A stretch of DNA of 20,000 nucleotides from an uncultured virus (IMG/VR IMGVR_UViG_3300015615_000373). Lineage: Duplodnaviria > Heunggongvirae > Uroviricota > Caudoviricetes. This document shows positions 2,047 to 18,461 of this stretch, piece after piece; position 1 is the stretch's first letter, and every line of letters begins with the position of its first letter. The position numbers were made by a program, and so were the translations under genes. The notes under the pieces were generated by a model that saw only the letters and a list, made by a program, of their open reading frames with translations, was not told the origin of the DNA and made no database searches. Location of the stretch: positions 49,065 to 69,064 of IMG/VR virus record IMGVR_UViG_3300015615_000373. One strand, 5' to 3'.

Positions 2047-2085
2047 ACGGTAACTGATTTTGGAATAGATGTCAACTATTCAAAT
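2047..2085 (-). promoter_or_regulatory. sigma70 promoter with overlapping dyad operator
   Basis: TTGACA (2075-2070), 17 bp, TACCGT (2052-2047); GAATAG-N7-CTATTC dyad around the -35. Confidence 0.75.
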
Positions 2086-3061: not shown

Positions 3062-3100
3062 ATCGTAACACATTTTGGAAACGTTGTCAATTATTCCAAA
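3062..3100 (-). promoter_or_regulatory. sigma70 promoter (extended -10) with overlapping dyad operator
   Basis: TTGACA (3090-3085), 17 bp, TGtTACGAT; TTTGGAA-N13-TTCCAAA (3074-3100) encloses the -35. Confidence 0.85.
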
Positions 3101-3102
3101 TA

Positions 3103-3426
3103 TCAGGAATTGTGGTCGGGCGGAATAGCGGGCGGTAAATTCCAACTGTCGCGGTCGCCGCGTGTCGTCGGAAAGGCGACGCCGTTGGTCGGTACGTCGG
3201 CGGTTCGAAAGACGTTTCCGCAACGGTGGCACAAGTGCGATTTGTGCGGCGGGTTGTCCCAAGCCGGAACGAAGTCGTGTCCCAAGGCTAGACGTTCCAA
3301 GGCATCGGACAAAGGCTTCCAATTTTTCGCCAACAAATTCTTTTGTCGCCAATGATAAGACGGTGAGCGTCCTTCGATAGTGAACGCGTCGACGACGGTT
3401 TTAACTGTGTCAAGAAATTTTTTCAT
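3103..3426 (-). CDS. hypothetical protein with H..CxxC motif
   Basis: ORF overlapping the upstream gene; HDF...HLCHRC. Confidence 0.6.
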   Translation of the reverse strand: MKKFLDTVKTVVDAFTIEGRSPSYHWRQKNLLAKNWKPLSDALERLALGHDFVPAWDNPPHKSHLCHRCGNVFRTADVPTNGVAFPTTRGDRDSWNLPPAIPPDHNS

Positions 3427-3736
3427 AATTAAGGTTTGCCTTCATCAAGGCTTCGATTGTCCAAAAGTCCCGACCGGAACCGTCGGTGTATGGCGGCTTG
3501 CCTTCCATATAGCGAATCGCGTTTCCGGTTATCTCGTAATGTCCCCCTAGGCATCCGACCGGTCGAACGAAAACACATTCGAGCAGTTGGCGTAAGACGG
3601 TAAAGTTCGTTTTATTAAGTCCGTACCAAACCTGCAAGCCGTCACTTGCAAGGTCGTCTTCGTCGCGATTCTCATACAGCCACAACAAGACGACGCGGGC
3701 GGCGGGTGTCAAATCGGCGGGATTTCGGGCTTGCAT
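3410..3736 (-). CDS. hypothetical protein (possible winged-helix)
   Basis: ATG-initiated ORF immediately after repeat copy A. Confidence 0.65.
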   Translation of the reverse strand: MQARNPADLTPAARVVLLWLYENRDEDDLASDGLQVWYGLNKTNFTVLRQLLECVFVRPVGCLGGHYEITGNAIRYMEGKPPYTDGSGRDFWTIEALMKANLNYEKIS

Positions 3737-3746
3737 AGTGTTTTTG

Positions 3747-3949
3747 TCAAAACTCGTTAGCGGTCGTTATTTGGTAAACACGGCGTATATTCAAAAACCG
3801 AATACAGACGCCGCCGGTACTGTCTAAAAACGTGTCAAACGCGACGGTAGAACGGGTCGCACGGACGTTTGCGGGCGATTCTACCGCGTTTCGGGTTCTA
3901 CCCGATAGTTACCCGCCCGTCGCGGCGTTATGGCACGGTATTTGTCCGG
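3747..3949. repeat. 203-bp dispersed element, copy A
   Basis: Gap-free alignment to 15436-15638 at offset 11689, with conserved boxes and an identical terminal 19-mer TGGCACGGTATTTGTCCGG. Confidence 0.9.
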
Positions 3950-4059
3950 CGAATCCGACGGGCAAGATAACCGGATAAATGCCCGATAACCGACAAGGAG
4001 CCGCGAAAAAACCAAGCGACGACGGCTACCCGTTCGATTTGTTCGAGTGTTTCAATCAT
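3928..4059 (-). CDS. small hypothetical protein (43 aa), below ORF-track cutoff
   Basis: MIETLEQIERVAVVAWFFRGSLSVIGHLSGYLARRIRRTNTVP; ATGA overlap with stop at 4056. Confidence 0.45.
   Translation of the reverse strand: MIETLEQIERVAVVAWFFRGSLSVIGHLSGYLARRIRRTNTVP
3931..3945 (+). promoter_or_regulatory. sigma54-like -24/-12 box
   Basis: TGGCAC-GGTAT-TTGT versus consensus TGGCAC-N5-TTGC. Confidence 0.45.
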
Positions 4060-4358
4060 CCGTAGTTGCGGGTTATGTCCTTACCGCCGGTCGACGGTCG
4101 GGCTTTACCGTTGTCGTCGTACCGACCGCGAAGGGCGGCAAGGGCGCCGAGTAACAGCTTGACAGTCGTTACCGTTTGAACGCGTTGTTTGGTTCCGTCC
4201 GGCAAGTCGACCGAGAAAGTTATCATTGCCGCCGCCGCGCCGCTTTCCATTGCGCCGTCTTTGGTAACGATAGCGATGTCGCCGTGTTCCGGTAGCGAAC
4301 CTTTCAGCGCTCCATCGTACACAAGGTGATTGTTAAGTTTGATTTCGAATTTTTCCAT
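4056..4358 (-). CDS. hypothetical protein
   Basis: Start moved to ATG 4358 after AAGGA, just past the upstream stop. Confidence 0.7.
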   Translation of the reverse strand: MEKFEIKLNNHLVYDGALKGSLPEHGDIAIVTKDGAMESGAAAAMITFSVDLPDGTKQRVQTVTTVKLLLGALAALRGRYDDNGKARPSTGGKDITRNYG

Positions 4359-4362
4359 AGCT

Positions 4363-4749
4363 TTACAGTTCCTTCCAAGATTTGACGGGACGGTCGGCAA
4401 TTGAATTGCGGACAACCGACCATTCGAGCCGATGCCAAGTCGGTCGAATAAAAGGGGCGCGGACGGATTCGAACGTTACTACGTCGAACGTTTCTTCGTC
4501 GTCTTCATACGGGTAATGTTCAATGAATGTCGTCGATGCTACATTCAGATTGAACTTGCGGATTGCCCGTTCGCAAACGTGTTCTATGCCGTTCGTAACC
4601 GACATACCGGTATTGTCGATAGGTTCCGTCAACATAACGATTTTGCGACCGATAAAAACAAGGTCGTCGAATACTTGAACGCGTGTCTTCGCTTCGACGC
4701 GTCCGGTCGCCGGTGTCCACTTGATAACTTCGTCGTGCAGTTTAGCCAT
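4363..4749 (-). CDS. conserved hypothetical protein
   Basis: TE..DNTGMSVTNGIE...FIEHYP pattern recurs in phage hypotheticals. Confidence 0.75.
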   Translation of the reverse strand: MAKLHDEVIKWTPATGRVEAKTRVQVFDDLVFIGRKIVMLTEPIDNTGMSVTNGIEHVCERAIRKFNLNVASTTFIEHYPYEDDEETFDVVTFESVRAPFIRPTWHRLEWSVVRNSIADRPVKSWKEL

Positions 4750-4831
4750 TACTTCAATTTGTCCGGTCGTATCATCATTACGACTCCAATCTGTCTAAAA
4801 AAAACGTCCGTTTAAATTCGTCAAAAACTGT

Positions 4832-5182
4832 CTAACTTGCCACCTTTGCAGATAGTTCGGGCTTGTCGGAACAATTGCCTTTATGATGCCAAGCTAACGG
4901 GTTATTAACGCAGTCGCCTTTCAGCCAAAGCAGACATCCACAACTCGGACATCGGCGGGCACTGCGATAGTCTTCTGGTTCCATTTCGTTATCGGTCGCC
5001 ATTGACAATTCGTTAAACCACTTCGCAATCTCTGTGTAACCACCACCAATCGCCTCCGTCTTGAGTCGGAACTCGGATTGCAGATACTGTCCGTGTGTTT
5101 CGCGAATATGTCTTCGTAGGGCGGCGTCGGTCGCGTAACCGGCGCCCGAAGTTCCGTTCGGGCATATCAAACAATAAAACAT
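4832..5182 (-). CDS. C2H2/Zn-ribbon protein
   Basis: CLIC...LRRHIRETH and CPSC; start ATG 5182 after AGAGGA, TAATG overlap. Confidence 0.7.
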   Translation of the reverse strand: MFYCLICPNGTSGAGYATDAALRRHIRETHGQYLQSEFRLKTEAIGGGYTEIAKWFNELSMATDNEMEPEDYRSARRCPSCGCLLWLKGDCVNNPLAWHHKGNCSDKPELSAKVAS

Positions 5183-5541
5183 TATAGTTTCCTCTCTTGT
5201 CGTTCGTTCCAATAAGGGTCATAGCAGAAGTGAGCGCAATACCAAAGTGTCTTTTCGATATTGCTTATGAAGGTTTCCGCCGTCCGCGCCGCCGTCGGGA
5301 ACTTACGCAGTATCGCGGTCGATTCCGGCGTAACGGGGAAGTACAGGTCGGACGCGTGGCTATCGGTCGGGATTCCCGCCGCGATTATGGCTTGATACAG
5401 CGACGTAGGCGGCGTTTCCGGCTTCGCGGGCGGGGTTATATGGCAATCACAGGAACAGCGATTCTTATCGCCTTTATAATTGAATTCGCCGGAACATTCA
5501 GCGTGTTCTCCAAGCTGACAAGCAATAAACTCTGTCGTCAT
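5182..5541 (-). CDS. phage hypothetical protein
   Basis: Start ATG 5541 (ATGA overlap); Cys/His N-terminus plus DSHASDLY...WY...YDPYW domain seen in phage early regions. Confidence 0.7.
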   Translation of the reverse strand: MTTEFIACQLGEHAECSGEFNYKGDKNRCSCDCHITPPAKPETPPTSLYQAIIAAGIPTDSHASDLYFPVTPESTAILRKFPTAARTAETFISNIEKTLWYCAHFCYDPYWNERQERKL

Positions 5542-6110
5542 ACAGTTACCCCCGTATCCGCCGCTTCCAATAAGTTTGTCATTACCCGTTGCCAACGTCC
5601 GGCGGCGGCGTCCCAAGTTTTCGCCCTATCCGCCGCGTCCGGTACGTCGACCATTGCCGCGAAGTCGTTCTGCATATCGCGGGCGGCGTGATAGTTCGTA
5701 CTGACAACGTTCAAGATTCGATAGATGTTTGTTTCAGGGTCGGCGGCGACCGTCTTACAGAAGTCGCGGGTAAAGAGTTTTTCCGCTTTCCCCGAAGACG
5801 CCAAGCCGTCGGCGATTGTCGCCCGTATGTCGTCCATTATACCGAACCCCCTTTGCAAGTGATTCGCGACGCGTTGGCACCGGAAGGTTTGGTCAGGTGA
5901 CAAGTCGTTGCAAAGACCGGCGACCGGCGCGGGCGGCTTCTGCAATTCGACCGCGATAGCATTGTAGATGATTTCGAGTTCGTCGACCGTGAAAGTATTG
6001 GTAACCCAAGAATTCCCGTTCCTAGTAAATGATAGGTCGCGCGAATCGGTTTTGTTCAGGTCGGCGAATCTGTCCGGCGTGATTTTGATTTCGAATGTTG
6101 GTTTTGTCAT
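5538..6110 (-). CDS. hypothetical protein
   Basis: Conserved leader AAGGAAACGACAATG and upstream promoter. Confidence 0.8.
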   Translation of the reverse strand: MTKPTFEIKITPDRFADLNKTDSRDLSFTRNGNSWVTNTFTVDELEIIYNAIAVELQKPPAPVAGLCNDLSPDQTFRCQRVANHLQRGFGIMDDIRATIADGLASSGKAEKLFTRDFCKTVAADPETNIYRILNVVSTNYHAARDMQNDFAAMVDVPDAADRAKTWDAAAGRWQRVMTNLLEAADTGVTV

Positions 6111-6153
6111 TGTCGTTTCCTTATCAATTTATTCCGTCGATTCCGACGGTATC

Positions 6154-6882
6154 CTAACTAAAACATATTTTGGAAACGTTGTCAACTATTCCAATATCAC
6201 TTTTTCTTGTTCCGGTTAGTATCAAGAATAATCCCGCGTCGGGTCGGACGCGTCCGACGGTCGCCGCTTCCAAGTCGAAGTACCACTTGTACGGGAACCG
6301 GTCGGCGGCAAAGTTGATACCGACGACGCGTAGGTCTTCGAAGTACGGGCTATACAGGCGTAGCAATTCCGCCTTGGTCGCGAACGTAGTCGGAACGTTC
6401 GTCGTAAAGTCCGACCGGTTCGGACAGTACCGGCGACCGAAGAATTGCAGAAAGAGAACGCCTTCGGGTTTCAGCCAACTTGCAAACAGTTCCGGCAAAC
6501 GTTCCGCGCCGTCGATAACGTACGACATTGAAGCGAACGTCGATATGACGGCGGCGACGCGGCGGGCGGGTTCGTATTCCAAAACGTCCGACCGTTCGAA
6601 CCGGTAATCGGGGAACTTTCCCTTCGCTACTTTCAACATCGTTTCGGATATGTCGACGCCGATGTATTCGTTTGCCGGTATCTCAAGGTTTTCAAGTACC
6701 AAGCCGGTTCCGCAACCGACATCGACAATGTTTCCGCCGAACGGTCGCCATTCAAGGGCGTCCGCCAAGTACCGGAACGTCCAATCGTTTTCGATGATGT
6801 CTATTGGTCGCAAGAATTCGTCGTCGTAAGTTTCGCCAAGCCGGTCGTAGACTTCGATTATCTGTTCGGTCGCATTATTCAT
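6154..6882 (-). CDS. class I SAM-dependent methyltransferase
   Basis: IVDVGCGTG motif I, YIGVDISETML motif II, WLKPEG; start ATG 6882 after GAAGGTGG. Confidence 0.9.
   Translation of the reverse strand: MNNATEQIIEVYDRLGETYDDEFLRPIDIIENDWTFRYLADALEWRPFGGNIVDVGCGTGLVLENLEIPANEYIGVDISETMLKVAKGKFPDYRFERSDVLEYEPARRVAAVISTFASMSYVIDGAERLPELFASWLKPEGVLFLQFFGRRYCPNRSDFTTNVPTTFATKAELLRLYSPYFEDLRVVGINFAADRFPYKWYFDLEAATVGRVRPDAGLFLILTGTRKSDIGIVDNVSKICFS
6157..6195 (-). promoter_or_regulatory. sigma70 promoter with overlapping dyad operator
   Basis: TTGACA (6185-6180), 17 bp, TGtTTTAGT; near-identical to the 3062-3100 copy; lies inside the 3' end of the methyltransferase ORF. Confidence 0.75.
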
Positions 6883-7441
6883 TGTTACCACCTTCGTACA
6901 GTTGTTTTTCAAGATTGCCAAGCGGTCGGGCGTTCGGTCGTTCGTAGCCTATCGGTATAGTGAACCGGCGACCGCGATAAACGGGCATAACTTCGTGAGC
7001 GGATACGTTCGCTTCGAATATAACGCACAGACCGGCGACCGGCTTAATCTTACACCCGTTGACCACAAGTTCCCCGCCGTCGTAGTCGTCGTTCCAAAAG
7101 ACAACGGCGGTAACTTCGTTCGGGTCGTAGTGCAATTCGTACCGATGCCCTTCGTCGAGTATGTTGACGTTGACCGCCGACGCCTTACTTTTCATAAGCC
7201 GAATGTCGTCGCCGAATTGTTCCTGAACAATGAATTTCAGGCGTTCCGCAAGTTTCCACAGTTCCGGCAAATGTTCTTCGGTTTGGAACCCGTTCAAGAC
7301 GCGATAGTCGACGCCCGCCGTTTCTTCACCTTCGACAGAACCTTCCGTTTTACCCTTCCAGACAACCGGCGTTGCCAAGTTCCAAAGCCGGTCTTTGTCA
7401 AGAACCGGCAAGTCGACGTTGATTGTAATTATGTTTTTCAT
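6875..7441 (-). CDS. 2OG-Fe(II) oxygenase (prolyl-4-hydroxylase-like)
   Basis: HYD, DYDGGEL, KP.AG..VIF, H.V.PV..G.R (HxD...H...R). Confidence 0.9.
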   Translation of the reverse strand: MKNIITINVDLPVLDKDRLWNLATPVVWKGKTEGSVEGEETAGVDYRVLNGFQTEEHLPELWKLAERLKFIVQEQFGDDIRLMKSKASAVNVNILDEGHRYELHYDPNEVTAVVFWNDDYDGGELVVNGCKIKPVAGLCVIFEANVSAHEVMPVYRGRRFTIPIGYERPNARPLGNLEKQLYEGGNNE

Positions 7442-9327
7442 AGTCCTTTTGTTTTTCCAAGATGTAACGAACCGAACGCGCGGCGGCGTTGCGGCGGCGT
7501 CATTGATTCACTCCAAACCGCCATTGACATAGCGACCGCGCCGTCGATTGCCCGAACCGCCGCTTTCGGCTTAACGATGCGAAGTCCGGTATCAAGTTCT
7601 TCGCCCTTTTTGCCTTTCAGCAAGCGGTTTTGATGCTGTGCTTTTGCGGCGTCTAAGTGACTGTGCAAGGTTTCGTCGGTCGGTACGTCGATTTGATAGC
7701 TTTTGAATACCCGATGCAAGAACGTGTCGGCTTTGATGCGTTCGTTCCCTTGCTGAAATTCCTTGATTAACAGCTTGTGTTTCTTCCGCAAATTGACGGC
7801 TACTTGGTGCATCTGCGTCGGGTCGTAGAAGACCGCTATCGGTATCAGGAAAGCGTTTTCTTTGATAAGTGCGGATTCCTTGCCGTCGGGTTCCCGTCGC
7901 TTAATCAGTCCGGCTTTCCACAACCGGACAATTTCGTCGCCTACCAAATTATCAAGGTCGAAGTCGTCGCCGGTCGGCGCGTACGCTTTGAAGTACGGGA
8001 CGCGGAACCGAACGTCGCCGCCGGTTGCTTCGGTCATATCCGCCGCCGGTAACGTCGGGTCGAATTCGGAATAGCAACCGACCAAAGCCGTCGAGTCAAT
8101 CCGACCTTGCGACGCGTCGACGGCAAGTGTCATTTTCTTAGCGGCGGGGACGCGGCGGGGAATTCCTTCGAAGACGGATAGCCCGTCGCTTGTCAAGTCC
8201 CGCCCGCGAAGTTCGGCGGTTGCCAACATATCGGCGGTAATGAACTTGGTATCGGTCTTCTGCCAACGGTTATGCACAAGTCGCATAATGTCGGCTTCCG
8301 TCATACCGACCGTAACCGACGCGTAGTATTCCGGCGTCTGCCAGTCGAACCGATGTTCGTGGTCGACGAATAGGAACATTGATTCTTTGGGTACGCGGTA
8401 ACAGCACGGTATCTGATTCCCGAACGCGTCGGTCGTCGTAATGTCCGCAAGTTCCGGTACGGGTTCCGCGCCCGCTTGTAATTCCGATTCGGTCGTATCG
8501 GTGAAGACGTTAAGCCACAGGCTCAAGAGTTGTTCGGACGTATCTTCGTACCCGACGTAGGTTTCTACCCATCGAATCGAGTTCAACTTCGTCGGAACCG
8601 GCATCGTTTCCGCCCAAAGTGTCTTTGCCCGTTCGCCGTCCCACCCCCACAATTCCGAGATAAAGACAGCGCCGTAGTTGGCGCCCGCTTCTGCCTTCGG
8701 GGAATTGGTAATCGCTTCGACGACGGTTCCGTTCTTGAGAATGATTTTGTTACCGGCGATACGGGCGCCGTTAAGTTTGAGCGTCGGCGCCATTGAATTG
8801 AAGATACGTCCGATTGATTGTCCCTGTGTGTTGGCGGCGACAAGTATCAAGTTCGGCGGTTCGACGTATTCCGCAATCCAACACCCGCCAAAAGCGGCAT
8901 TGCCGGTCTTACCGGATTTCTTCGGCGCCGACCATATCACGGTACGGTACGGGAAGCGACCGGTCTTCGGGTCGGGCGTTAGAACGTGGGTCAATATGCG
9001 GGCTTGGAACGGTGCAAGGGTAATACCTGTGGCGTTCGAGTAATCCCAAGTCTGTACGTTGACCGTATCGGGGTTGACAACGGTGTTCTGAATGTAGTCT
9101 GTGACCGACGGGGTATGTATTGCACGGTCGACGTTTCGAATGATGCGGGCTTGCCGTACGGCTTCGGCTTCGGCGATTGCCGTATCGTAGTACGCCGACA
9201 AGTCCGACGGCGTGATAGGCGGCGCGGCGGGCGGTCGCAATTCGATAACCGGCGATTTACGCGACGGGCGGCGCGGCGTCCCACTGAATCCGTCCGTCAA
9301 CTTTGCGATTGTCTTACCTAGTACCAT
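7438..9327 (-). CDS. terL: terminase large subunit
   Basis: LAPFQ adenine-binding motif, APKKSGKT Walker A, AANTQGQS, FISELWG Walker-B-like, nuclease motifs LAVDAS..DSTAL, YDP.Q and IDGAVA. Confidence 0.9.
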   Translation of the reverse strand: MVLGKTIAKLTDGFSGTPRRPSRKSPVIELRPPAAPPITPSDLSAYYDTAIAEAEAVRQARIIRNVDRAIHTPSVTDYIQNTVVNPDTVNVQTWDYSNATGITLAPFQARILTHVLTPDPKTGRFPYRTVIWSAPKKSGKTGNAAFGGCWIAEYVEPPNLILVAANTQGQSIGRIFNSMAPTLKLNGARIAGNKIILKNGTVVEAITNSPKAEAGANYGAVFISELWGWDGERAKTLWAETMPVPTKLNSIRWVETYVGYEDTSEQLLSLWLNVFTDTTESELQAGAEPVPELADITTTDAFGNQIPCCYRVPKESMFLFVDHEHRFDWQTPEYYASVTVGMTEADIMRLVHNRWQKTDTKFITADMLATAELRGRDLTSDGLSVFEGIPRRVPAAKKMTLAVDASQGRIDSTALVGCYSEFDPTLPAADMTEATGGDVRFRVPYFKAYAPTGDDFDLDNLVGDEIVRLWKAGLIKRREPDGKESALIKENAFLIPIAVFYDPTQMHQVAVNLRKKHKLLIKEFQQGNERIKADTFLHRVFKSYQIDVPTDETLHSHLDAAKAQHQNRLLKGKKGEELDTGLRIVKPKAAVRAIDGAVAMSMAVWSESMTPPQRRRAFGSLHLGKTKGL

Positions 9328-9373
9328 TTATTTCAAGTCGTATGAGCGTATGCGGCGTCGCTAACGACGTTTC

Positions 9374-9748
9374 TTACCGGAACGCGGGGATTTCCCCGTT
9401 TCGGAAGTCGACGCCTAATAGACGGGCTTCTTCGCTGAATACCGACGCGACCGGTCGGGGACGTAAAGCGCGGACGCGTTCAACGATTTCTTCCATTGTG
9501 AAAACTTTGCGTTTACCAAGATGTTCAATCAAACCGTGACAGTTCGAGCAAGCTACGATAACGGCTTCGAGGTCTTCTAACGTGTACCAATCTACCCGCT
9601 TCTTCGAGTGAGCGAACGCGGCGGTGAAAGCGAACCGGCATATTGTCGGGAACCTCAGTTCACAGGATACGATGCCGACGGCTTCGAATTCAACTGTTAC
9701 TTTTGGTCGTACTATTCTGTCCCAATCCGGTAGTTCCTTGTTTGCCAT
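9374..9748 (-). CDS. HNH-like (YbcO/DUF968-type) Zn nuclease
   Basis: CE....C....AH....ACSNCH pattern; adjacent to terL. Confidence 0.7.
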   Translation of the reverse strand: MANKELPDWDRIVRPKVTVEFEAVGIVSCELRFPTICRFAFTAAFAHSKKRVDWYTLEDLEAVIVACSNCHGLIEHLGKRKVFTMEEIVERVRALRPRPVASVFSEEARLLGVDFRNGEIPAFR

Positions 9749-9965
9749 TTCTGAATTGTCCTTCCTTTAATTGCTTCCACAGTCGACGAACCTTTTTCGG
9801 GGTCGCACCTTTAATCGCGTCGGCGAACGCTTTGCAGAACGCTTCGGTTTCCGCGTCCGACCACGCCGCCGCCGCGTAACCCCAAGTGCATAGCGTTTCC
9901 CGCATAGCGGCAAGTCCGATACGTTTCCGGCGGGCATTGTCCCAAGCTATCAATCTCTTAAACAT
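9690..9965 (-). CDS. hypothetical protein
   Basis: Start ATG 9965 after GAGGA. Confidence 0.55.
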   Translation of the reverse strand: MFKRLIAWDNARRKRIGLAAMRETLCTWGYAAAAWSDAETEAFCKAFADAIKGATPKKVRRLWKQLKEGQFRNGKQGTTGLGQNSTTKSNS

Positions 9966-10272
9966 CGTTGTCTTCCTCAAGTTCGCAATCAGCGCAGATA
10001 GTCCCGCGACCGGCGGACATACAACACGCGGTCGAACCGTCGACGCCGCAACGGGGACAGGTCAATAGGTCGTCGCGTTCGGGGTTGAATTCACTACCGC
10101 ACATCGGGCAATTATCTTTTGGCATAGGGCTGTCGTCGTGTTTCGGGACAATTTTCTTTGCGGCTTTGTATTCGTACCGTTTCCCCTTGCGGGTCGCCGC
10201 CCGATACTTTTCGACCGTCTTGAAGTTGGATTCGGGTTTGCCTTTAAAGACAGGGTGCAAGGTTCGCTTCAT
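9958..10272 (-). CDS. basic Zn-ribbon protein
   Basis: CPMC, CPRC, CC, CADC; TAATG overlap with the terS stop. Confidence 0.7.
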   Translation of the reverse strand: MKRTLHPVFKGKPESNFKTVEKYRAATRKGKRYEYKAAKKIVPKHDDSPMPKDNCPMCGSEFNPERDDLLTCPRCGVDGSTACCMSAGRGTICADCELEEDNDV

Positions 10273-11090
10273 TACGCCGCCGCCCTTCCCGTTTCGTCTA
10301 TCGGTTCGCCGCGAATGATAGCGTCTTTTGCTTCCCGACATCGGGCAATGTATGAATCGAGTTCGTCGGCGGACATTTCTTCAAGCGGCTTGTCCGGCGC
10401 CGGAACGTCGCGGTCGATTTCACCGGTCGACGCATAGCGGTCTTGTTCGCGGGCGTACTGTGCAAGTATCAGTCCGGCTTCGGAAAACTTCGGCGCGTCG
10501 GATACCGAAAACCGCGACGGCTTCAATATCGTTACGTTGACCATCAGCGGCTTTCCGTCCTTATCGAACATCTGTCGACCGTCGGCGTCGAACGCGAGTT
10601 CGCCCTTCGTCTGCGATTGAACAACATTCAATTTCAGAATCGCTTCTGCCTTGTCAAATAGTTGGTCGGCGATACGCCGCGTCCGTTCGATGTTCTTAAT
10701 GTGCCAAGCGGCATAGTCGAACGCTTGTTCGGTCGCCGTCGATTCTGCGACTTTCGCGACCGTCTTGGCGACGCCTTTATCCGCCGCTATCCGCAACGTT
10801 TCGAGATACGCCGCCCGCCGCGCTTTCCAATTAAACTTACTCGCAAGGGTGTCGATACGTCGCCCGCTCTTTAACTCGAATTTCGCGCGAACGCGTTCCC
10901 GCAAATCCTTAACGTCCGCCGGTAGGTCGCGGTACGCTTGGAACATTGCATAAGCCCTTGGGGTTTCGTCTGCTCTCTTATGCCATATTTCGGCGGGTTC
11001 GGATATAGGCGGGGACGCCGACCGCGTACGCTTTGCGGGCGGCGCCGGTGTGTGTAGGGATTGCAGAAATTGTTTCGGGTCGAATGTCAT
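10272..11090 (-). CDS. terS: terminase small subunit
   Basis: W.K...ET..AY..F..YRDL...W..R..AY N-terminal HTH pattern of TerS; C-terminal LEEMSADELD; start ATG 11090. Confidence 0.75.
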   Translation of the reverse strand: MTFDPKQFLQSLHTPAPPAKRTRSASPPISEPAEIWHKRADETPRAYAMFQAYRDLPADVKDLRERVRAKFELKSGRRIDTLASKFNWKARRAAYLETLRIAADKGVAKTVAKVAESTATEQAFDYAAWHIKNIERTRRIADQLFDKAEAILKLNVVQSQTKGELAFDADGRQMFDKDGKPLMVNVTILKPSRFSVSDAPKFSEAGLILAQYAREQDRYASTGEIDRDVPAPDKPLEEMSADELDSYIARCREAKDAIIRGEPIDETGRAAA

Positions 11091-11398
11091 TTTCTCTTTA
11101 GCCACAGGTGATAAGTGCAATAAATGAAGACGGCGTGACAGAACGCTTGTCCGGCAATGGCAAGGTAATTCAATTTGCCGCCGGTACGCCAATCAAGGAC
11201 GGTTATAGCTATCAGGATAACGACGGTCGCGGTCGACAAGAGTAAAGCAATCCATAGTGCCGTACGGCGATGTACGGTTAAAAGGCATTTCTTTTCGGTT
11301 CCGTCCGGTAAAGTATAAGTGTAATCGACAATGTGTTCACAGTCGACGGAATAATATCGGTTCCCACAGATTGAGCATCGAACACGTTCTTTTAGCAT
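11087..11398 (-). CDS. two-TM membrane protein with N-terminal CxxC (holin-like topology, unproven)
   Basis: Two hydrophobic segments, basic C-terminus KRK. Confidence 0.6.
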   Translation of the reverse strand: MLKERVRCSICGNRYYSVDCEHIVDYTYTLPDGTEKKCLLTVHRRTALWIALLLSTATVVILIAITVLDWRTGGKLNYLAIAGQAFCHAVFIYCTYHLWLKRK

Positions 11399-11399
11399 A

Positions 11400-11630
11400 T
11401 TAGTTTAGCGATGCGAGAATTATGTCTAGCATCTTGTAATTCAATTGGAAAAACAGGTGACACTTTGCAAGGGTTCCGCATTCAATACGCAATTTGCAGT
11501 TTTCGTCTTTCATCGCTTCTGCCTTCGTGTGATAGAACGCGAGTTGCGAACCTTTGGATTTCCCGTCGCGGCAAACACATATAGCGATGTCGTCAAGGTC
11601 GAATTCGATTGTCAGTTGTTCGTTGTCCAT
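11400..11630 (-). CDS. hypothetical protein
   Basis: Fills the gap between coupled minus-strand genes. Confidence 0.6.
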   Translation of the reverse strand: MDNEQLTIEFDLDDIAICVCRDGKSKGSQLAFYHTKAEAMKDENCKLRIECGTLAKCHLFFQLNYKMLDIILASLN

Positions 11631-12166
11631 ATTACCGGCTTCGTATCATCAGGCAAATAAAGCGGGTGATACGGTTCCACTTTCCCCATTTTAAGATAGT
11701 GCAATTGAACCCGCGATTGTAACAACATTCGGCGGACGTATTCCGACCGGCGGCGTATGTTTGCGTGTTGGCTCCAAGCGGCGACGACAATAGTGGCGCT
11801 TTCAGCGATGCGGCGTATATGACGGTTGTTTTCGTCGCCTTCGGGGTTTGATACCAAAGTAAGTATTTTCGGGTCGGTAGAGCGATAGGCGAAAATGTTT
11901 GTAATACAGACCGAATTGTAGCCCCACGCGTATGCGAACTTGGTTATCTTCCGAATAGTCGGGTCGTCTTGAGTGTCGGACGCGACCGACGGATTCAGAC
12001 AGATAAAGTTGACGTAACCGGACGGCTTCGGCTTTGCCGGTCGAAAGTCGGCGGCGGCGACACTTAACAACGGTTCCGCCCGCGTACGCCATAGCGTATA
12101 GCGATAGATTTCGTCGTCGGAAAAAACGGCGGGCGGATAAGAGATTGTGCCGGTCGGGATTTTCAT
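11612..12166 (-). CDS. DUF1643 domain protein
   Basis: YRY.LWR, FI.LNPS.A....DDPTIR, N.FAYRSTDP, AAW and HPLY motifs. Confidence 0.9.
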   Translation of the reverse strand: MKIPTGTISYPPAVFSDDEIYRYTLWRTRAEPLLSVAAADFRPAKPKPSGYVNFICLNPSVASDTQDDPTIRKITKFAYAWGYNSVCITNIFAYRSTDPKILTLVSNPEGDENNRHIRRIAESATIVVAAWSQHANIRRRSEYVRRMLLQSRVQLHYLKMGKVEPYHPLYLPDDTKPVIWTTNN

Positions 12167-12167
12167 A

Positions 12168-12719
12168 TCAGAATAACGGATGAAACGTCGTAGGCGAATG
12201 TATCCGCGTACGGTTGTATTCAGGAAGGTTGCTGAATTTCAAAATCGGATGCTCTCTTTCGAACCCCGCGACATCTGCCAAGAAGTTCAGATTGTCGTCG
12301 TTGTAATCGGGCAAAATGATAACGTGGTAGTCACCGCGATTTTCGAGATATTGACCGGAAACGTGAAGATAACCGTTGTAGTCGACCGGCGTGTTTTCGT
12401 ACTCCGTCCCCTTGCTTGGGATTTTGTAGTAGTAAGCGCCGTTGGCACCTTTGACAGTGTTCCCGAATACGACGACGGCGTAAGTATTCAGAAGCAACGG
12501 ATTGTAGCCCTTTGCTTTAGCCCGAACCGCCGCTTCATTCATTCCGCGTTCTATCGCGGCGATTTCGACCGGCGATACGTTGGCATCTTTTTCTACCCAA
12601 AGGTTCAGTCCGCTTGGTAGAACCCGCTTTTCAGTATCCTTCACGCGGTCGGCGACGGATTTTTCGGGACAGGCGGTAAACAGCAAAGCAAAACATAAAA
12701 TTAGCAATAGTCTTTTCAT
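12168..12719 (-). CDS. lipoprotein
   Basis: MKR + hydrophobic core + lipobox FTAC. Confidence 0.8.
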   Translation of the reverse strand: MKRLLLILCFALLFTACPEKSVADRVKDTEKRVLPSGLNLWVEKDANVSPVEIAAIERGMNEAAVRAKAKGYNPLLLNTYAVVVFGNTVKGANGAYYYKIPSKGTEYENTPVDYNGYLHVSGQYLENRGDYHVIILPDYNDDNLNFLADVAGFEREHPILKFSNLPEYNRTRIHSPTTFHPLF

Positions 12720-12725
12720 AGTGAT

Positions 12726-13106
12726 TTACTCCATTAAGTCGGTCAGGTCGCGATTCATTACGATTTTCGCGCCGTTGTCAATTCGATACAAAGCGGTGAA
12801 GCCAAGCGATTCGTAAAGCGCTTGAGCGTTGGCGTTGTCCTTATGGACAAATAGGTCGACGGATTTGTTACCGGCGGCGGCGGCGGCGGATAAAATCTTT
12901 TTGATTAAGTACCGCCCGACGCCGCGTCGACGGCATTTCTCATCTACCCAAAGAATGTGAATATGCGGTCGTACGTCTTCGCCGGTTCCCCAAGGGTCGA
13001 CCTTTGCGATTCCTACGATGCGGTCGTTATGAGTCGCAAAGAATTGTTCCGATTGTATGCCGTCGGTCGGTATTGACAGCGTTACAGTTTGTAAGTGCAG
13101 ATTCAT
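12726..13106 (-). CDS. GNAT N-acetyltransferase
   Basis: LWV...RRRGVG..L acetyl-CoA motif A, V...N..A..LYESLGF; start ATG 13106 (ATGA overlap). Confidence 0.9.
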   Translation of the reverse strand: MNLHLQTVTLSIPTDGIQSEQFFATHNDRIVGIAKVDPWGTGEDVRPHIHILWVDEKCRRRGVGRYLIKKILSAAAAAGNKSVDLFVHKDNANAQALYESLGFTALYRIDNGAKIVMNRDLTDLME

Positions 13107-13795
13107 TTGTCGTTCTTTTCCCTTTCCTGTTTTTCTATCAGAATTTGGTTCTTCGTTACCCAAGACTGTTTATATTCAACGTCTTCGAATAACTTGCTAA
13201 AGCCGGTGATATGTTTCAACCGTAAAAGTTCTTCAGGTTCCATACCGAGTTCGTTGCAAATGCCTTCGTCAGTCCAACCGTTGTCAAGCATTTCGTAGAC
13301 CATATTCGCCATACCGTCGACGGAGTGTTTGCCCCTTGCCCGATTGTGCCGGACGGTCGACGCCATACGGTCGTTAATATCCTTTTCGATATGAACAACC
13401 GGCAAATGCCCCTGAACTTTAATTGCGATGTCGACGAAGTTGGTTCCGACGAAGTACCGGTGAAATCCATCAACGATAACTGATTTTTCGCGTTCCGTAT
13501 CGCGGACGCTAACGACGGGTTGAGTATAGCCGTCGTGGTCGATTGACGTATGCAACAGCTTCATTTCAGTTCGGGCGACCGAATTCGGGTTGTAGTCGTT
13601 CGGTTCTACGTCGCCGGACGGCAACCATAACACAAGGTCGACCGGTTCGTTCTTGAACGGCGATATTTCGTGATGTATCCAAGTCCGTAGCATATTGACG
13701 AATTCTATGCGGTCGGGTGCGACGGCGGCGGCGGCGTTAATCGCGTCGACCATCGCAAGATTCAATTCGTTTTGCACGAAAATATTCATTGTCAT
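13103..13795 (-). CDS. ibrB: IbrB/YbdM-like ParB/Srx domain protein
   Basis: PVD.V.W, NDYNPN.VA, SI..DGYTQPVV, IVDGFHRY, MASTVRHNRARGKH; start 13795 (TAATG overlap). Confidence 0.9.
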   Translation of the reverse strand: MTMNIFVQNELNLAMVDAINAAAAVAPDRIEFVNMLRTWIHHEISPFKNEPVDLVLWLPSGDVEPNDYNPNSVARTEMKLLHTSIDHDGYTQPVVSVRDTEREKSVIVDGFHRYFVGTNFVDIAIKVQGHLPVVHIEKDINDRMASTVRHNRARGKHSVDGMANMVYEMLDNGWTDEGICNELGMEPEELLRLKHITGFSKLFEDVEYKQSWVTKNQILIEKQEREKNDK

Positions 13796-15033
13796 TACGG
13801 CTTGCTCCCTTCGTTTTCCGGTCGGCGTCCCCGCCGAATATCCATCTGAATAAACTTGTTTTTTTCTATGCGGTTCGGTTGTACGCGGCGCCCGCGCCAC
13901 CATTTTTTCCAAGTTACGATTTCCGGCGATACTTCCCAATTGGTCAACTTGACGAAATAAATGTCGTTCGACAAGACGACGGAAATCATTTGCCGATACA
14001 TCTTGTCAAGGTCGGGAAAGTTTTCGAACTTTTCGTCCATCGCCGCAAACTTCTTTTGAATTGCCGACCGGTTCGTCGGGTCGGTGATAAGTTTTTCGGT
14101 CAGGAAGTCGCGGTACTCTTTCCAAGATACGAACATCGGCGGTAAGACCTTCGGAATGAACCAATCTTTTGCCTGTAATTGACCGGCGGAATTGACGCCC
14201 TGCAAGCGTTCGGTTAGCTTGCTCCACGTTGCGCCGTCGATTTCCTGCGCGTGGAACGTGTGTCGAACGGCGGTCGCGTGATGCAACGATGATACCCGCA
14301 TATCATTGATGTTGTAGCCGTGTTGGTACATTACGTCGTAGACTTTGCAATAGTCCCACCCGTTCGAGTGAATCGCCTTCCAAATATCGGTATAACTCCA
14401 ATCGTACAGCGGGTAGAAACCGTACTGTTCGAGCGACCGCGTTTGTATCCGTCCCCAAGTAACGGCTTTGTACGTCGCGGCGGCGGTCAAACCCGAAAAG
14501 CGACCTGGGCTTTCTTCTGCGCGGATACCGGCAAGCAAAGCGGTTTTCGGCGGATAATCCTTCGCTAACATCGCGGTAAACAAAGCGTGAAATTCGTTAG
14601 TGCCGTAAACGTTTTCTTGAATAGCGTCCGGTTCTTTCGGTCGCATCCATTCCCGACCGGCTTCCCAAGTTGTGATGTGACTTTCGGTCGCCGACGTTGC
14701 GTTTTCGATTAAGAATTCAACTTGGAACCAACGGAAGTCTATACGCGGGTCGGCTTTTATGCGGCGGGCGTAGTCGACGACAAGTTGCCATTCGGCTTCT
14801 TGGTCGAACCAAAATACCGGCAACGGTAAGCGACCGCGTTCTTCCGCAACTTTCAAGGCAAGATTCAGGATAACGGTAGAATCCTTGCCGCCGGAAAACG
14901 CGATGGTAATATTCGGGAATTCGTCGAAGATATACCGTATGCGGTCAAGCGCCGCGTCGTAGACGTTTTGCTTTTTATAGATTCTCAACATCGCCCGCCG
15001 CCCTTCAAATGCCGTAACGTGAATAGCTATCAT
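13795..15033 (-). CDS. ibrA: IbrA/YbdN-like PAPS-reductase-fold PP-loop protein (DUF3440 type)
   Basis: NVYDAA..RI, FSGGKDS, D.EAE, GIRAEES..R, YPLYDW...DIW, MRVS; start may be 14991. Confidence 0.9.
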   Translation of the reverse strand: MIAIHVTAFEGRRAMLRIYKKQNVYDAALDRIRYIFDEFPNITIAFSGGKDSTVILNLALKVAEERGRLPLPVFWFDQEAEWQLVVDYARRIKADPRIDFRWFQVEFLIENATSATESHITTWEAGREWMRPKEPDAIQENVYGTNEFHALFTAMLAKDYPPKTALLAGIRAEESPGRFSGLTAAATYKAVTWGRIQTRSLEQYGFYPLYDWSYTDIWKAIHSNGWDYCKVYDVMYQHGYNINDMRVSSLHHATAVRHTFHAQEIDGATWSKLTERLQGVNSAGQLQAKDWFIPKVLPPMFVSWKEYRDFLTEKLITDPTNRSAIQKKFAAMDEKFENFPDLDKMYRQMISVVLSNDIYFVKLTNWEVSPEIVTWKKWWRGRRVQPNRIEKNKFIQMDIRRGRRPENEGSKP

Positions 15034-15410
15034 TTATACCCGTTTACCGGTCGGTTCCATTTGTACCCGAGTTCTTCGACCATACGTTCAAGTTCGTCGT
15101 CGTCGTCGAGCGTCCGGTTGATTAGTAGAAAGCCGTCGATTTGTTCGTCGGTTGCTTTGCTATCAGCAAGCCAATACCGGTAGCCGCCCGCGCGGAATAT
15201 CGGATAGGTCGTTCTGTAAAATTGGTAAGTGTCGCCGCCGTTGTGCCATATCCAACGGCTAACGTCGATAAACAGTTTTGAGTCGCCGGACGTTTTGATG
15301 TGCGACCACCAATGCGGCGCTTTCGTCGCGTAAGTTTTGGCGAATGTCCACTTGTAGGATTCTAAGATTTTTTGGATTTCTTCGGGCGATAATTCTCTAG
15401 TTGGTAGCAT
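15030..15410 (-). CDS. conserved 'WTFAKT...PH' protein accompanying IbrAB-type clusters
   Basis: WTFAKTYA..APHW, Y.YW and LINR motifs; SD AAGGA; coupled to ibrA. Confidence 0.75.
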   Translation of the reverse strand: MLPTRELSPEEIQKILESYKWTFAKTYATKAPHWWSHIKTSGDSKLFIDVSRWIWHNGGDTYQFYRTTYPIFRAGGYRYWLADSKATDEQIDGFLLINRTLDDDDELERMVEELGYKWNRPVNGYK

Positions 15411-15435
15411 ATTTGTCGGTTTTTTCCTTATTTTT

Positions 15436-15638
15436 TCAAAACGCGTCAGAACGGGTTATTTGGACAAATAGACGGGAATTCCAAAAGCGAATATAACCCC
15501 CGCCGCCGTCTTACGAAAACGCGTTAAACGCGACCGTAGAATACGGGTTCCGACGCAATAGACGCCGCCCTACGGGTTTTCGTTTGAAATCCGTACCGAA
15601 CCCGCCGTTAGGCGGGGCGTGGCACGGTATTTGTCCGG
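15436..15638. repeat. 203-bp dispersed element, copy B
   Basis: Gap-free alignment to 3747-3949. Confidence 0.9.
15620..15634 (+). promoter_or_regulatory. sigma54-like -24/-12 box
   Basis: TGGCAC-GGTAT-TTGT. Confidence 0.45.
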
Positions 15639-15684
15639 TGATTTAATTTTCAAAGATTTGCCGATTTTGCCAAGTTTGTATTCG

Positions 15685-15703
15685 TGGCACGGCGTTTGTC
15701 CGG
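15685..15703 (+). promoter_or_regulatory. third copy of the sigma54-like 19-mer
   Basis: TGGCACGGCGTTTGTCCGG, 17/19 identical to the other copies, 65 bp from copy B's box, abutting the parB-like stop. Confidence 0.5.
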
Positions 15704-16573
15704 TTACATCAACTTCGGGTCGACCTCAAATTCAGTCGCACATTCAGGACAGATTGCGGGAATAAGATTTTGTTCGCCGGTAAATTTTCCGCCTTGTTTC
15801 TTTTCCGCCGCCGCGACATCGGACGCGGTAACTTCCCCGCCGTCGGATACCGGCGGCTTAATGTTCGGGTCGAACAAGTGCGGTTTGTCGGCAAGTAATT
15901 CCATTGCGCGGAAGACGGTTGCCGACACATCGGTCGTTCCAAGTTTTTGCGAAAGGGCGACCGACAGCTTCAAGAACAGCGAATACCGTTCGGGGTCGAA
16001 GGCTAATTGCGTTTGCCGCATTTCAGACATTTTCGCAGTTTCCCGAACTTTGACGCCGCCTTTACCGTCGGACGCGTCCGACGTTTTGCCTTCTTCGGGT
16101 TCGGGTTCGAAGTGCATCGTAGCGACAAGTTCCGTTAGATACGCGTCGTCGTAGCCGGTTTCTTCAAGGGCGCCCGCCGCCTGTAACGATTGCAGAACTT
16201 CGAGTTGCAGTTCCGCGTCGTATCCGCCGCGTTCGTTCAATCGGTTCAATGCCGCCGCCGCCGCGCGTCGGTCGTTGTCGTTGTTGAAAGTAATGCCGGT
16301 CGTAACCGGAACCATCCACTTGTCGCCTTTGACAATAACGCCGACCGGCGGTTCGCCGCCTTTCGATTTCAGAAGTTGCAGGGCTTCGACGCGTCCGTTC
16401 CCGTCGAAGTTTTCGCCGGTCGATTCGTCGATACCGATAGGCGTTAAAAGCCCGCGTTTCGCAATCGAACCGGCGATGCCTTCTACGTCGTGAAGTTTGA
16501 AGTTCTTCTCAAGGGGTTTGATACTGTCAAGGTCGCGGTACGCGATGCCTAATTTTGGGGCGATATTTTTCAT
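15704..16573 (-). CDS. ParB/Srx N-terminal domain protein with C-terminal Zn ribbon
   Basis: SI.P..KN...HD...I..SI...G...PI.ID..TG...DGNGR..AL; CPEC..EF tail typical of terminase-proximal ParB-like genes. Confidence 0.85.
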   Translation of the reverse strand: MKNIAPKLGIAYRDLDSIKPLEKNFKLHDVEGIAGSIAKRGLLTPIGIDESTGENFDGNGRVEALQLLKSKGGEPPVGVIVKGDKWMVPVTTGITFNNDNDRRAAAAALNRLNERGGYDAELQLEVLQSLQAAGALEETGYDDAYLTELVATMHFEPEPEEGKTSDASDGKGGVKVRETAKMSEMRQTQLAFDPERYSLFLKLSVALSQKLGTTDVSATVFRAMELLADKPHLFDPNIKPPVSDGGEVTASDVAAAEKKQGGKFTGEQNLIPAICPECATEFEVDPKLM

Positions 16574-17961: not shown

Positions 17962-18096
17962 TCACTCCCGTTTCTCCTTTTTTGGTTCTGCTTTTGCACG
18001 TTTTCTAGGTTTCTTTTTCTTTTCTTTAGGCCGATATTTCAGAACAATATCGGCCATTTTATCCAACATAATCGGTGTTTCTTTTTCATCGCTCAT
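17962..18096 (-). CDS. small Lys-rich ORF of the IS1595-type element (44 aa)
   Basis: MSDEKETPIMLDKMADIVLKYRPKEKKKKPRKRAKAEPKKEKRE; ATGA overlap with the transposase stop; ends inside the terminal repeat. Confidence 0.65.
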   Translation of the reverse strand: MSDEKETPIMLDKMADIVLKYRPKEKKKKPRKRAKAEPKKEKRE

Positions 18097-18461
18097 GCGG
18101 TTAGCTCCTTGTAGGTCAAACGCTTTCCGTTTGAGGCCGTAATAAAGCTATCGAGCCTTTCGAGCATGTGAAACTTCACGTTCCCGAAATTGAGCCGGAA
18201 CGTAAATTCATTCACATAGCGGTTCAAATGCTTTTTGCTTGTGTGATGGTAAACACCCGTGATTCCACGTTTCAGCAAAGCCCAAACGCTCTCTATCGAG
18301 TTCGTTGTGACCAGTCCGCGTCCGTATTCGCCGCCCGAATGGTTGATAGCCTGATGGTGAAAGAAAAGACCGTCTAAGCCGCTGTACGCCTTGTGTTCGT
18401 CGGTAAAGAGTTGCGAACCGACTTCAACGTGATCGTGAATTGCCTGTTGGATTGTCGGCAT
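18093..18461 (-). pseudogene. IS1595/ISXO2-like DDE transposase, C-terminal fragment
   Basis: TDE..AY, H..INH...EY, TNSIES.W..LKRG..G.YH..S.KHL.RY..EF.FR, RLTYK.L; N-terminal Zn ribbon, HTH and first Asp are missing. Confidence 0.85.

Follow-up and report, generated by a model that had tools for sequence, protein, structure and literature searches.

Position and alignment of the four copies

The stretch of DNA analyzed here (the window, 20,000 nucleotides) is the final 20 kb of the 69,064-bp record IMGVR_UViG_3300015615_000373 from an uncultured virus of the Caudoviricetes, and it contains two copies, A and B, of a 203-bp non-coding element that a sequence-only reading had taken for either a multi-protein DNA site or a structured RNA. 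Positions are given in the window or, in separate numbering, in the genome. The record is a complete siphovirus genome with a 141-bp terminal repeat. Genes were called for terminase, portal, capsid, tail tube, a tape-measure-like protein of 1,938 amino acids (aa), DnaB, a replication initiator, ERF and DNA modification, and among the open reading frames (ORFs) selected over the whole genome, 20,744 residues are encoded on the minus strand versus 1,357 on the plus strand.

Copy A (window 3747..3949, plus strand; genome 52811-53013) opposes the minus-strand genes around it, and copy B is found at window 15436..15638 (plus strand; genome 64500-64702). The two align without a gap at an offset of 11689, as had been reported, and are identical at 123 of 203 positions, against a background of ~51 ± 6.5 over all offsets of the genome and 83 in the best window outside the element. 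The flanks of A and B are unrelated to each other. The named boxes, the spacers of 6, 14, 21 and 78 bp and an identical 19-mer were all recovered as described, together with the minus-strand ATG codons at window 3736 and 15410, located 10 bp from A and 25 bp from B. While A and B are real, the total is four and not two, as an nhmmer search of the genome with a model built from A and B added copy C (genome 35728-35930, oriented as A and B; E 1.6e-36) and copy D (genome 18115-17918, opposite strand; E 1.2e-20). The next match in the genome had an E-value of 0.07.

Copy C is identical to A at 140 of 203 positions, also without a gap, and pairwise identity among the copies is 61-69%. The absence of indels claimed for A and B extends to C but not to D, which is 4 bp shorter through losses of 1-2 bp per segment; the distances from the successive boxes to TGGCAC are 182/164/104/18 bp in A, B, and C, and 178/162/103/17 bp in D. 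Informative sites pair A with C and B with D (13 sites, versus 4 and 6 for the alternative pairings), and B and D have in common a 65/66-bp extension with a second sigma54-type motif. Given this grouping and the identical spacings of A, B, and C, length has been kept across the deepest split among the copies, while only 22 of the 78 bases of the longest spacer are common to A, B, and C, and 32 of 78 to A and B. Gene conversion as the source of the equal lengths was rejected, with no mosaic signal among the copies (p 0.52). Of the strict helical phasing proposed earlier, the conservation of length holds across the split between A, C and B, but D tolerates losses of 1-2 bp and the 78-bp box spacing corresponds to ~7.4 turns. 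Each cassette occupies the gap ahead of a gene start; D is directed into the early operon, and A, B, and C against the genes. The suggestion that A and B bracket the terminase/modification block now describes what looks like an incidental arrangement, since C and D lie elsewhere in the genome.

Architecture of the cassette

Each copy contains, in fixed order and at near-fixed distances, a box X, an operator of the early-promoter type, a second box X with a dyad at about -120, and a -24/-12 motif. The latter forms the right end of every copy and is of the sigma54 type, TGGCACG-N4-TTG(T/C). In A it reads TGGCACG-N4-TTGT (window 3931..3945, plus strand), with a predicted +1 at 3957. For the other motifs, starts are predicted on the plus strand at window 15646 and 15711 and at genome 35938, and on the minus strand at genome 17908, 17842, and 17755. 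The pattern TGGCAC-N5-TTGY occurs seven times in the genome versus 0.03-0.1 expected, and at most once in any of 60 Markov-3 simulations. All seven motifs are located within the four copies or no more than ~155 bp downstream of B and D, and all seven have TGGCACG at -24 with exact spacing to the TTG at -12. The second motif after B (window 15685..15703, plus strand) lies 65 bp past the first and abuts the stop of a ParB-like gene, and the 66-bp extension after D resembles the one after B.

The operator was recognized from the seven early promoters of the phage (window 2075, 3090, and 6185, minus strand; genome 2360, 4021, 10640, and 15599), where TTGGAAT-N11-ATTCCAA surrounds a perfect TTGACA and overlaps the -35. 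In the window, these sigma70 promoter operators are found at 2060..2084, 3075..3099, and 6170..6194, all on the minus strand. A matrix trained on the arms of the seven early promoters alone, with the cassette sites left out, ranked the four cassette sites directly after the training promoters at 17.7-18.2 bits, the best unrelated site scoring 14.7 bits. This retrieval, independent of the cassettes, is the strongest new result of the analysis. In A the 25-bp operator is found at window 3771..3795, corresponding to -186 to -162. The left third of the cassette was also considered as a sigma70 promoter in the register of the early promoters and rejected: the conserved G and C are the dyad centre, none of the four copies has the final T of the -10, and the candidates rank 136 to 31,725.

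Box X is present twice per copy, 75-78 bp apart, and the eight cassette boxes have the eight highest scores in the genome with a matrix trained on themselves. In A, box X1 (window 3749..3760, plus strand; AAAAC..GT.AG) is a single half-site at -208 to -197, while box X2 (window 3827..3852, plus strand) comprises the dyad CGCGTY-A-RACGCG followed by GTAGAA. The dyad itself covers window 3831-3843, or -126 to -114 from the predicted +1. The corresponding parts of B are X1 at 15438-15449, the operator at 15460-15484, the dyad at 15520-15532 and the sigma54 motif at 15620-15634. Because the dyad has a one-base centre and changes symmetrically among the copies (GTC-A-GAC in C and D, GTT-A-AAC in B), it fits a DNA dyad and not an RNA hairpin. 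Its position makes it a candidate upstream activating sequence, falling inside both published ranges of sigma54 enhancer distance, 100-150 bp (PMC7057263, in excerpt) and 70-150 bp (PMC3844500, in excerpt).

Genes and other features around the copies

The start of a 108-aa gene (window 3410..3736, minus strand) lies 10 bp from copy A; its winged-helix-like lead is too weak for it to be named as the regulator. On the other side, a predicted hydrophobic ORF of 43 codons (window 3928..4059, minus strand) starts on the stop of a 119-aa gene and ends just past the sigma54 motif of A, so that the motif lies within this ORF. A 126-aa gene (window 15030..15410, minus strand) starts 25 bp from copy B and is followed by PAPS-reductase-like and ParB-like genes and then by the terminase block. 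The PAPS-reductase/DUF3440 gene adjoins the ParB-like gene (window 13103-15033, minus strand, downstream of copy B), and the two form an IbrA/IbrB-like pair. Copy C takes up the space separating the tape-measure gene from the tail-chaperone extension gene. Copy D has the last late gene upstream. Downstream of it come two more sigma54-type motifs, three copies of GTCGGAAAACCGA and a promoter reading TTGACA-N16-TATAAT, and then the first early gene (genome 17225-17611). This gene was tried as a source for the name of the regulator and set aside, as it gave just an HTH_17 lead, at 0.86. The GTCGGAAAACCGA repeats after D are placed between the second and third sigma54 motifs (L001:17696-17850), and the same interval contains a strong terminator opposing plus-strand (antisense) transcripts. 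A terminator scan of the copies themselves gave one terminator-like match within D, on the plus strand, and none in A, B, or C. Inspection by eye of the plus strand after A, B, and C showed no gene-like ORF led by a ribosome-binding site.

Most of the early cassettes also have AATAAA, a common ribosome-binding site, AAGGAAACGACAATG, and a hairpin in the 5' leader that shows compensatory changes (CCGTCG/CGACGG type). Palindromes of the GTCGGACGCGTCCGAC type are repeated many times in the genome, several of them just upstream of early promoters; in the window they occur at 2085-2111, 6243-6261, 11965-11991, and 16064-16082. The C-terminal piece of an IS1595-type transposase is encoded at window 18093-18461 (minus strand), and at genome 141-800 (minus strand) an IS1595 N-terminal zinc-ribbon-like segment was recognized by eye beside HNH-like sequence. 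A gene of the lysis region (L002:4966-5595, minus strand) contains a PAS domain.

The nearest named relative of the capsid protein, 73% identical, comes from a Pyrinomonadaceae metagenome-assembled genome (MAG), and from this we infer an Acidobacteriota host. All 61 genomes examined for rpoN in the likely host class (the class of a Blastocatellia MAG) contain the gene. In genomes of this class, the motif was compared with its reversed control for both bases at -12, giving 203 versus 119 matches for the T variant and 469 versus 227 for the C variant.

Searches for homologues

Pattern searches of IMG/VR returned 0, 7, 5, 30, and at least 145 stretches, none of which could be extended past its seed by nhmmer. 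The last figure refers to tandem sigma54-type motifs, and none of the viral stretches listed for it has this cassette. No relative was found with the terminase as query, no cassette match in 39 capsid-related loci (507,926 bases), none among the INPHARED phages, and in the JGI metagenomes only three stretches, matching the seed alone. Seven of 301 host-class genomes gave short matches of at most 50 bp, none of them the element. The searches covered DNA other than that of the closest capsid relatives (56-84% identical). In two syntenic IMG/VR relatives, no cassette is present at the chaperone/tape-measure junction, which measures 5 bp to the first possible start in one and consists of 215 bp of unrelated, apparently coding sequence in the other; copy C is for this reason regarded as lineage-specific. 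A literature search gave no repeated multi-operator sigma54 cassette in a phage and no description of this element.

Among the viral sequences retrieved, there are many contigs of ~11 kb in which each end has, within ~150 bp, two to three inward-pointing sigma54-type motifs in tandem (L144/L145, L146/L147, L190/L191, and many similar); these are possibly terminal promoters of small linear phages. Closely spaced head-to-head sigma54-type motifs were also observed in several viral loci (L152, L204, L217, L255, and others).

A proposed sigma54 promoter module tied to a phage regulator

The element is a real, selected, four-copy regulatory DNA cassette, known from one genome. That it is bound by protein and built around the sigma54 motif, whether as an active promoter or as a docking site, two possibilities that are not mutually exclusive, we consider quite probable. 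The more specific proposal, that it is a cis-acting, enhancer-type sigma54 promoter module tied to the regulator of the phage early genes, has in our estimate an even chance; the sites and their geometry are seen in the sequence. Of the options in the earlier interpretation, that of a DNA site for several proteins, combining an enhancer with a promoter of the sigma54 type, is supported and gains the early-promoter operator, whereas the structured-RNA option is not supported.

In such a module, host sigma54-RNA polymerase would dock on the -24/-12 motif, and an activator at the dyad would loop onto the polymerase. The activator could be an enhancer-binding protein of the host or a phage protein working in concert with such a factor. 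The phage regulator of the early promoters would also occupy the site at about -174, linking the state of the sigma54 module to that of the early genes. Transcription from copy D would run into the control region and on to the first early gene, which encodes a putative helix-turn-helix (HTH) protein. Copies A, B, and C would start transcription at or beside the 3' end of a converging gene, giving antisense RNA or collision with sense transcription, and the genes damped in this way would be those of the terminase region, the ParB-like gene and the tail genes. Lytic gene expression may thereby be braked or timed in concert, comparable to pRE versus paQ in lambda.

A number of observations weigh against this proposal. 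The base at -12 is T in six of the seven motifs, including all four in the cassettes, the only C being that at genome 17781, while C occupies this position in 96% of bacterial sigma54 promoters (PMC4551910, in excerpt). Neither a sigma54 activator nor a GAFTGA motif was found among the phage-encoded proteins, and sigma54 itself was not found there either. Among 301 genomes of the likely host class, none showed the combination of box X and TGGCAC, and a host activator therefore cannot be named. Between dyad and promoter, where sigma54 promoters often but not always have an IHF site, the copies have no IHF consensus in common, a scan giving just four two-mismatch matches, in A and C, at positions that do not coincide. 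No plus-strand terminator was found after A, B, or C in the terminator scan, and the host assignment comes from one protein match. TGGCAC-N5-TTGY is found at zero sites in four related phage records, and the cassette is for that reason known from one genome. Finally, no integrase, resolvase or clear CI-like repressor was found in the complete genome, which weakens a reading as a lysogeny switch. With the -12 C feature failing and no activator assigned, the cassette is not filed as a member of a known regulon.

A T at -12 may lower the barrier to activation. In E. coli, low-level activator-independent transcription by Region I-deleted sigma54 goes with loss of the -12 C, and repressive sigma54 sites retain it (both PMC4551910, in excerpt); by analogy, these findings tilt the -12 T motifs of the cassette toward firing rather than silence. 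We regard as unlikely, though worth stating, a bolder version in which the phage would fire host sigma54 polymerase without a classical AAA+ activator: the -12 T would prime the promoter for bypass, phage proteins would bend or wrap the length-constrained operator array to open it, and a single regulator would, across the whole genome, decide by sense or antisense transcription between full lysis and a held state without integration.

Alternative explanations

The same protein-binding DNA could instead work mainly in silence, with sigma54 holoenzyme held as a closed complex at A, B, and C. There it would occlude a sense sigma70 promoter that overlaps the motif or, in combination with the regulator on the operator, block read-through in a stoperator-like manner, gating the operons downstream (tape measure to lysis; modification and terminase) and perhaps soaking up host sigma54. 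This is the main rival, and we judge it somewhat unlikely; several observations are on its side. The N4 spacer is GTAT in exactly the three antisense first motifs and in none of the other four, so the opposite strand reads TACCGT, the -10 hexamer of the early promoter at window 2075; in B a -35 is also present (TTGAAA-N18-TACCGT, window 15624..15653, minus strand, rank 21 of 137,766 positions), making up a possible sense sigma70 promoter over the sigma54 motif. The location of each cassette in the gap ahead of a gene start and the occurrence of tandem sigma54 motifs in at least 145 viral stretches agree with such a role, and repression by sigma54 at overlapping sigma70 sites is documented (PMC4551910, in excerpt). 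On the other hand, scores for the sense promoter are poor at A and C (ranks 757 and 9,109), TACCGT was itself among the training hexamers, and just two bases are conserved beyond the sigma54 consensus, which has a probability of ~8% by chance given the 22/78 spacer identity. The repressive E. coli sites keep the -12 C where the cassette motifs have T, and a silent site would need no dyad at enhancer distance. A different origin of the copies, in which recombination has spread a duplicated control region, leaving D as its sole working copy and the other three as passengers or PeSL-like recombination hot-spots, accounts for the 65/66-bp extension with a second motif common to B and D and for the lineage specificity of C. 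It is nevertheless improbable: A, B, and C have kept their boxes and spacings although the A-B spacer has diverged to 32/78, which points to selection on each copy, and the lack of a mosaic signal (p 0.52) also speaks against it. Neither the strong sigma70 promoter nor the terminator that define PeSLs is present, the best sigma70 score in any copy being 11.1 bits (B), where the nine training promoters listed reach 13.9-19.2 bits.

A structured non-coding RNA or 5' leader of ~130-200 nt, on either strand, would explain why A, B, and C lie directly ahead of start codons on the coding strand, and B carries a register-matched TAGACG-N17-TATAAC (rank 136). The stem CGGTAG/CTACCG, whose covariation between A and B favours this reading, is indeed present in these two copies. 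Of its five predicted pairs, however, not one is kept by all four copies, each being disrupted in one. Folding z-scores for the four copies on both strands range from -1.74 to +0.89, RNAalifold gives weak consensus folds of ~-14 kcal/mol with a positive covariation term on both strands, and the sole Rfam match in the window lies outside the element (E 1.9). Copy D is on the opposite strand, and the most conserved blocks are recognizable DNA sites. These four-sequence data disfavour a structured RNA and the earlier option is not upheld; we would be surprised if it proved right. Length conservation, the several dyads and the inverted copy could also befit an accessory role in packaging, replication, gyrase wrapping or site-specific recombination. 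A search of the complete genome for tyrosine and serine recombinases (PF00589 and PF00239) gave no match, and the recombination option of the sequence-only reading is left without a recombinase; a dif/Xer-like core, sought by eye, was unconvincing. Copies that are only 61-69% identical and scattered at four places misfit a single pac or ori, and the sigma54 motif and early-promoter operator would be left unexplained, making this role very unlikely. In favour of a decayed duplicated gene, one minus-strand frame runs without a stop through C (72 codons) and is interrupted by a single stop in B. In A, however, several stops fall in that frame, in D it is shifted, and mismatches are spread evenly over the codon positions (29/26/25, 17/22/24, and 25/26/22). 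This check of the reading frame, set out beforehand, revealed no common frame and no third-position bias, and a gene remnant is thereby largely refuted and extremely improbable.

Comparison with known systems

Lambda CII activates pRE, pI, and paQ, so that one regulator serves several promoters, in sense to a regulator gene and antisense to lytic functions; these promoters are sigma70-based with short sites, in a temperate phage with an integrase. The sigma54 module proposed here would likewise combine one regulator with sense and antisense promoters, but in a phage in whose complete genome no integrase was found. The stoperators of cluster A mycobacteriophages resemble the cassette in reusing an early-promoter operator at intergenic sites by start and stop codons, but are 13-bp single sites with neither a sigma54 motif nor a long fixed architecture.

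Like the bacterial sigma54 promoters glnAp2 and pspA, as excerpted from PMC7057263 and PMC3844500, the cassette places TGGCACG at -24, exactly spaced from TTG, and has a dyad near -120 as well as an extended control region upstream. It differs from that type in the T at -12, the lack of an IHF consensus and of an assigned cognate activator, the presence of a phage early-promoter operator, and the dispersal of four copies, three of them antisense. Use of sigma54 by phages is thinly described, the literature found offering one promoter, the sigma54-like P015 of Pseudomonas phage YuA (PMC10914365, in excerpt). The same source describes P001 of LUZ19, an antisense phage promoter read by the phage's own polymerase. 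As proposed, the cassette would be like the former in the use of host sigma54 by a phage and like the latter in opposing an otherwise one-way genome, but both are, as excerpted, single promoters without a repeated 200-bp multi-operator cassette.

The four natural variants of the cassette show which bases and distances matter. If active, it would show how a phage programme can be coupled to the host's stress-responsive polymerase, and what role backward-facing sigma54 motifs can have. Motifs of this kind are widespread in phages, with at least 145 tandem cases in IMG/VR, so the cassette would bear on a wider unexplained pattern. The orientation of three of the four copies against the genes suggests an undescribed way to time or brake phage gene expression. 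Regulatory cassettes repeated between genes and dispersed over a phage genome are otherwise represented by the PeSLs of T4-type phages, which combine strong sense sigma70 promoters with terminator stem-loops (PMC2839356, in excerpt). The cassette shares this dispersed intergenic arrangement, although the seven early cassettes of the same phage are closer to PeSLs than the element described here.

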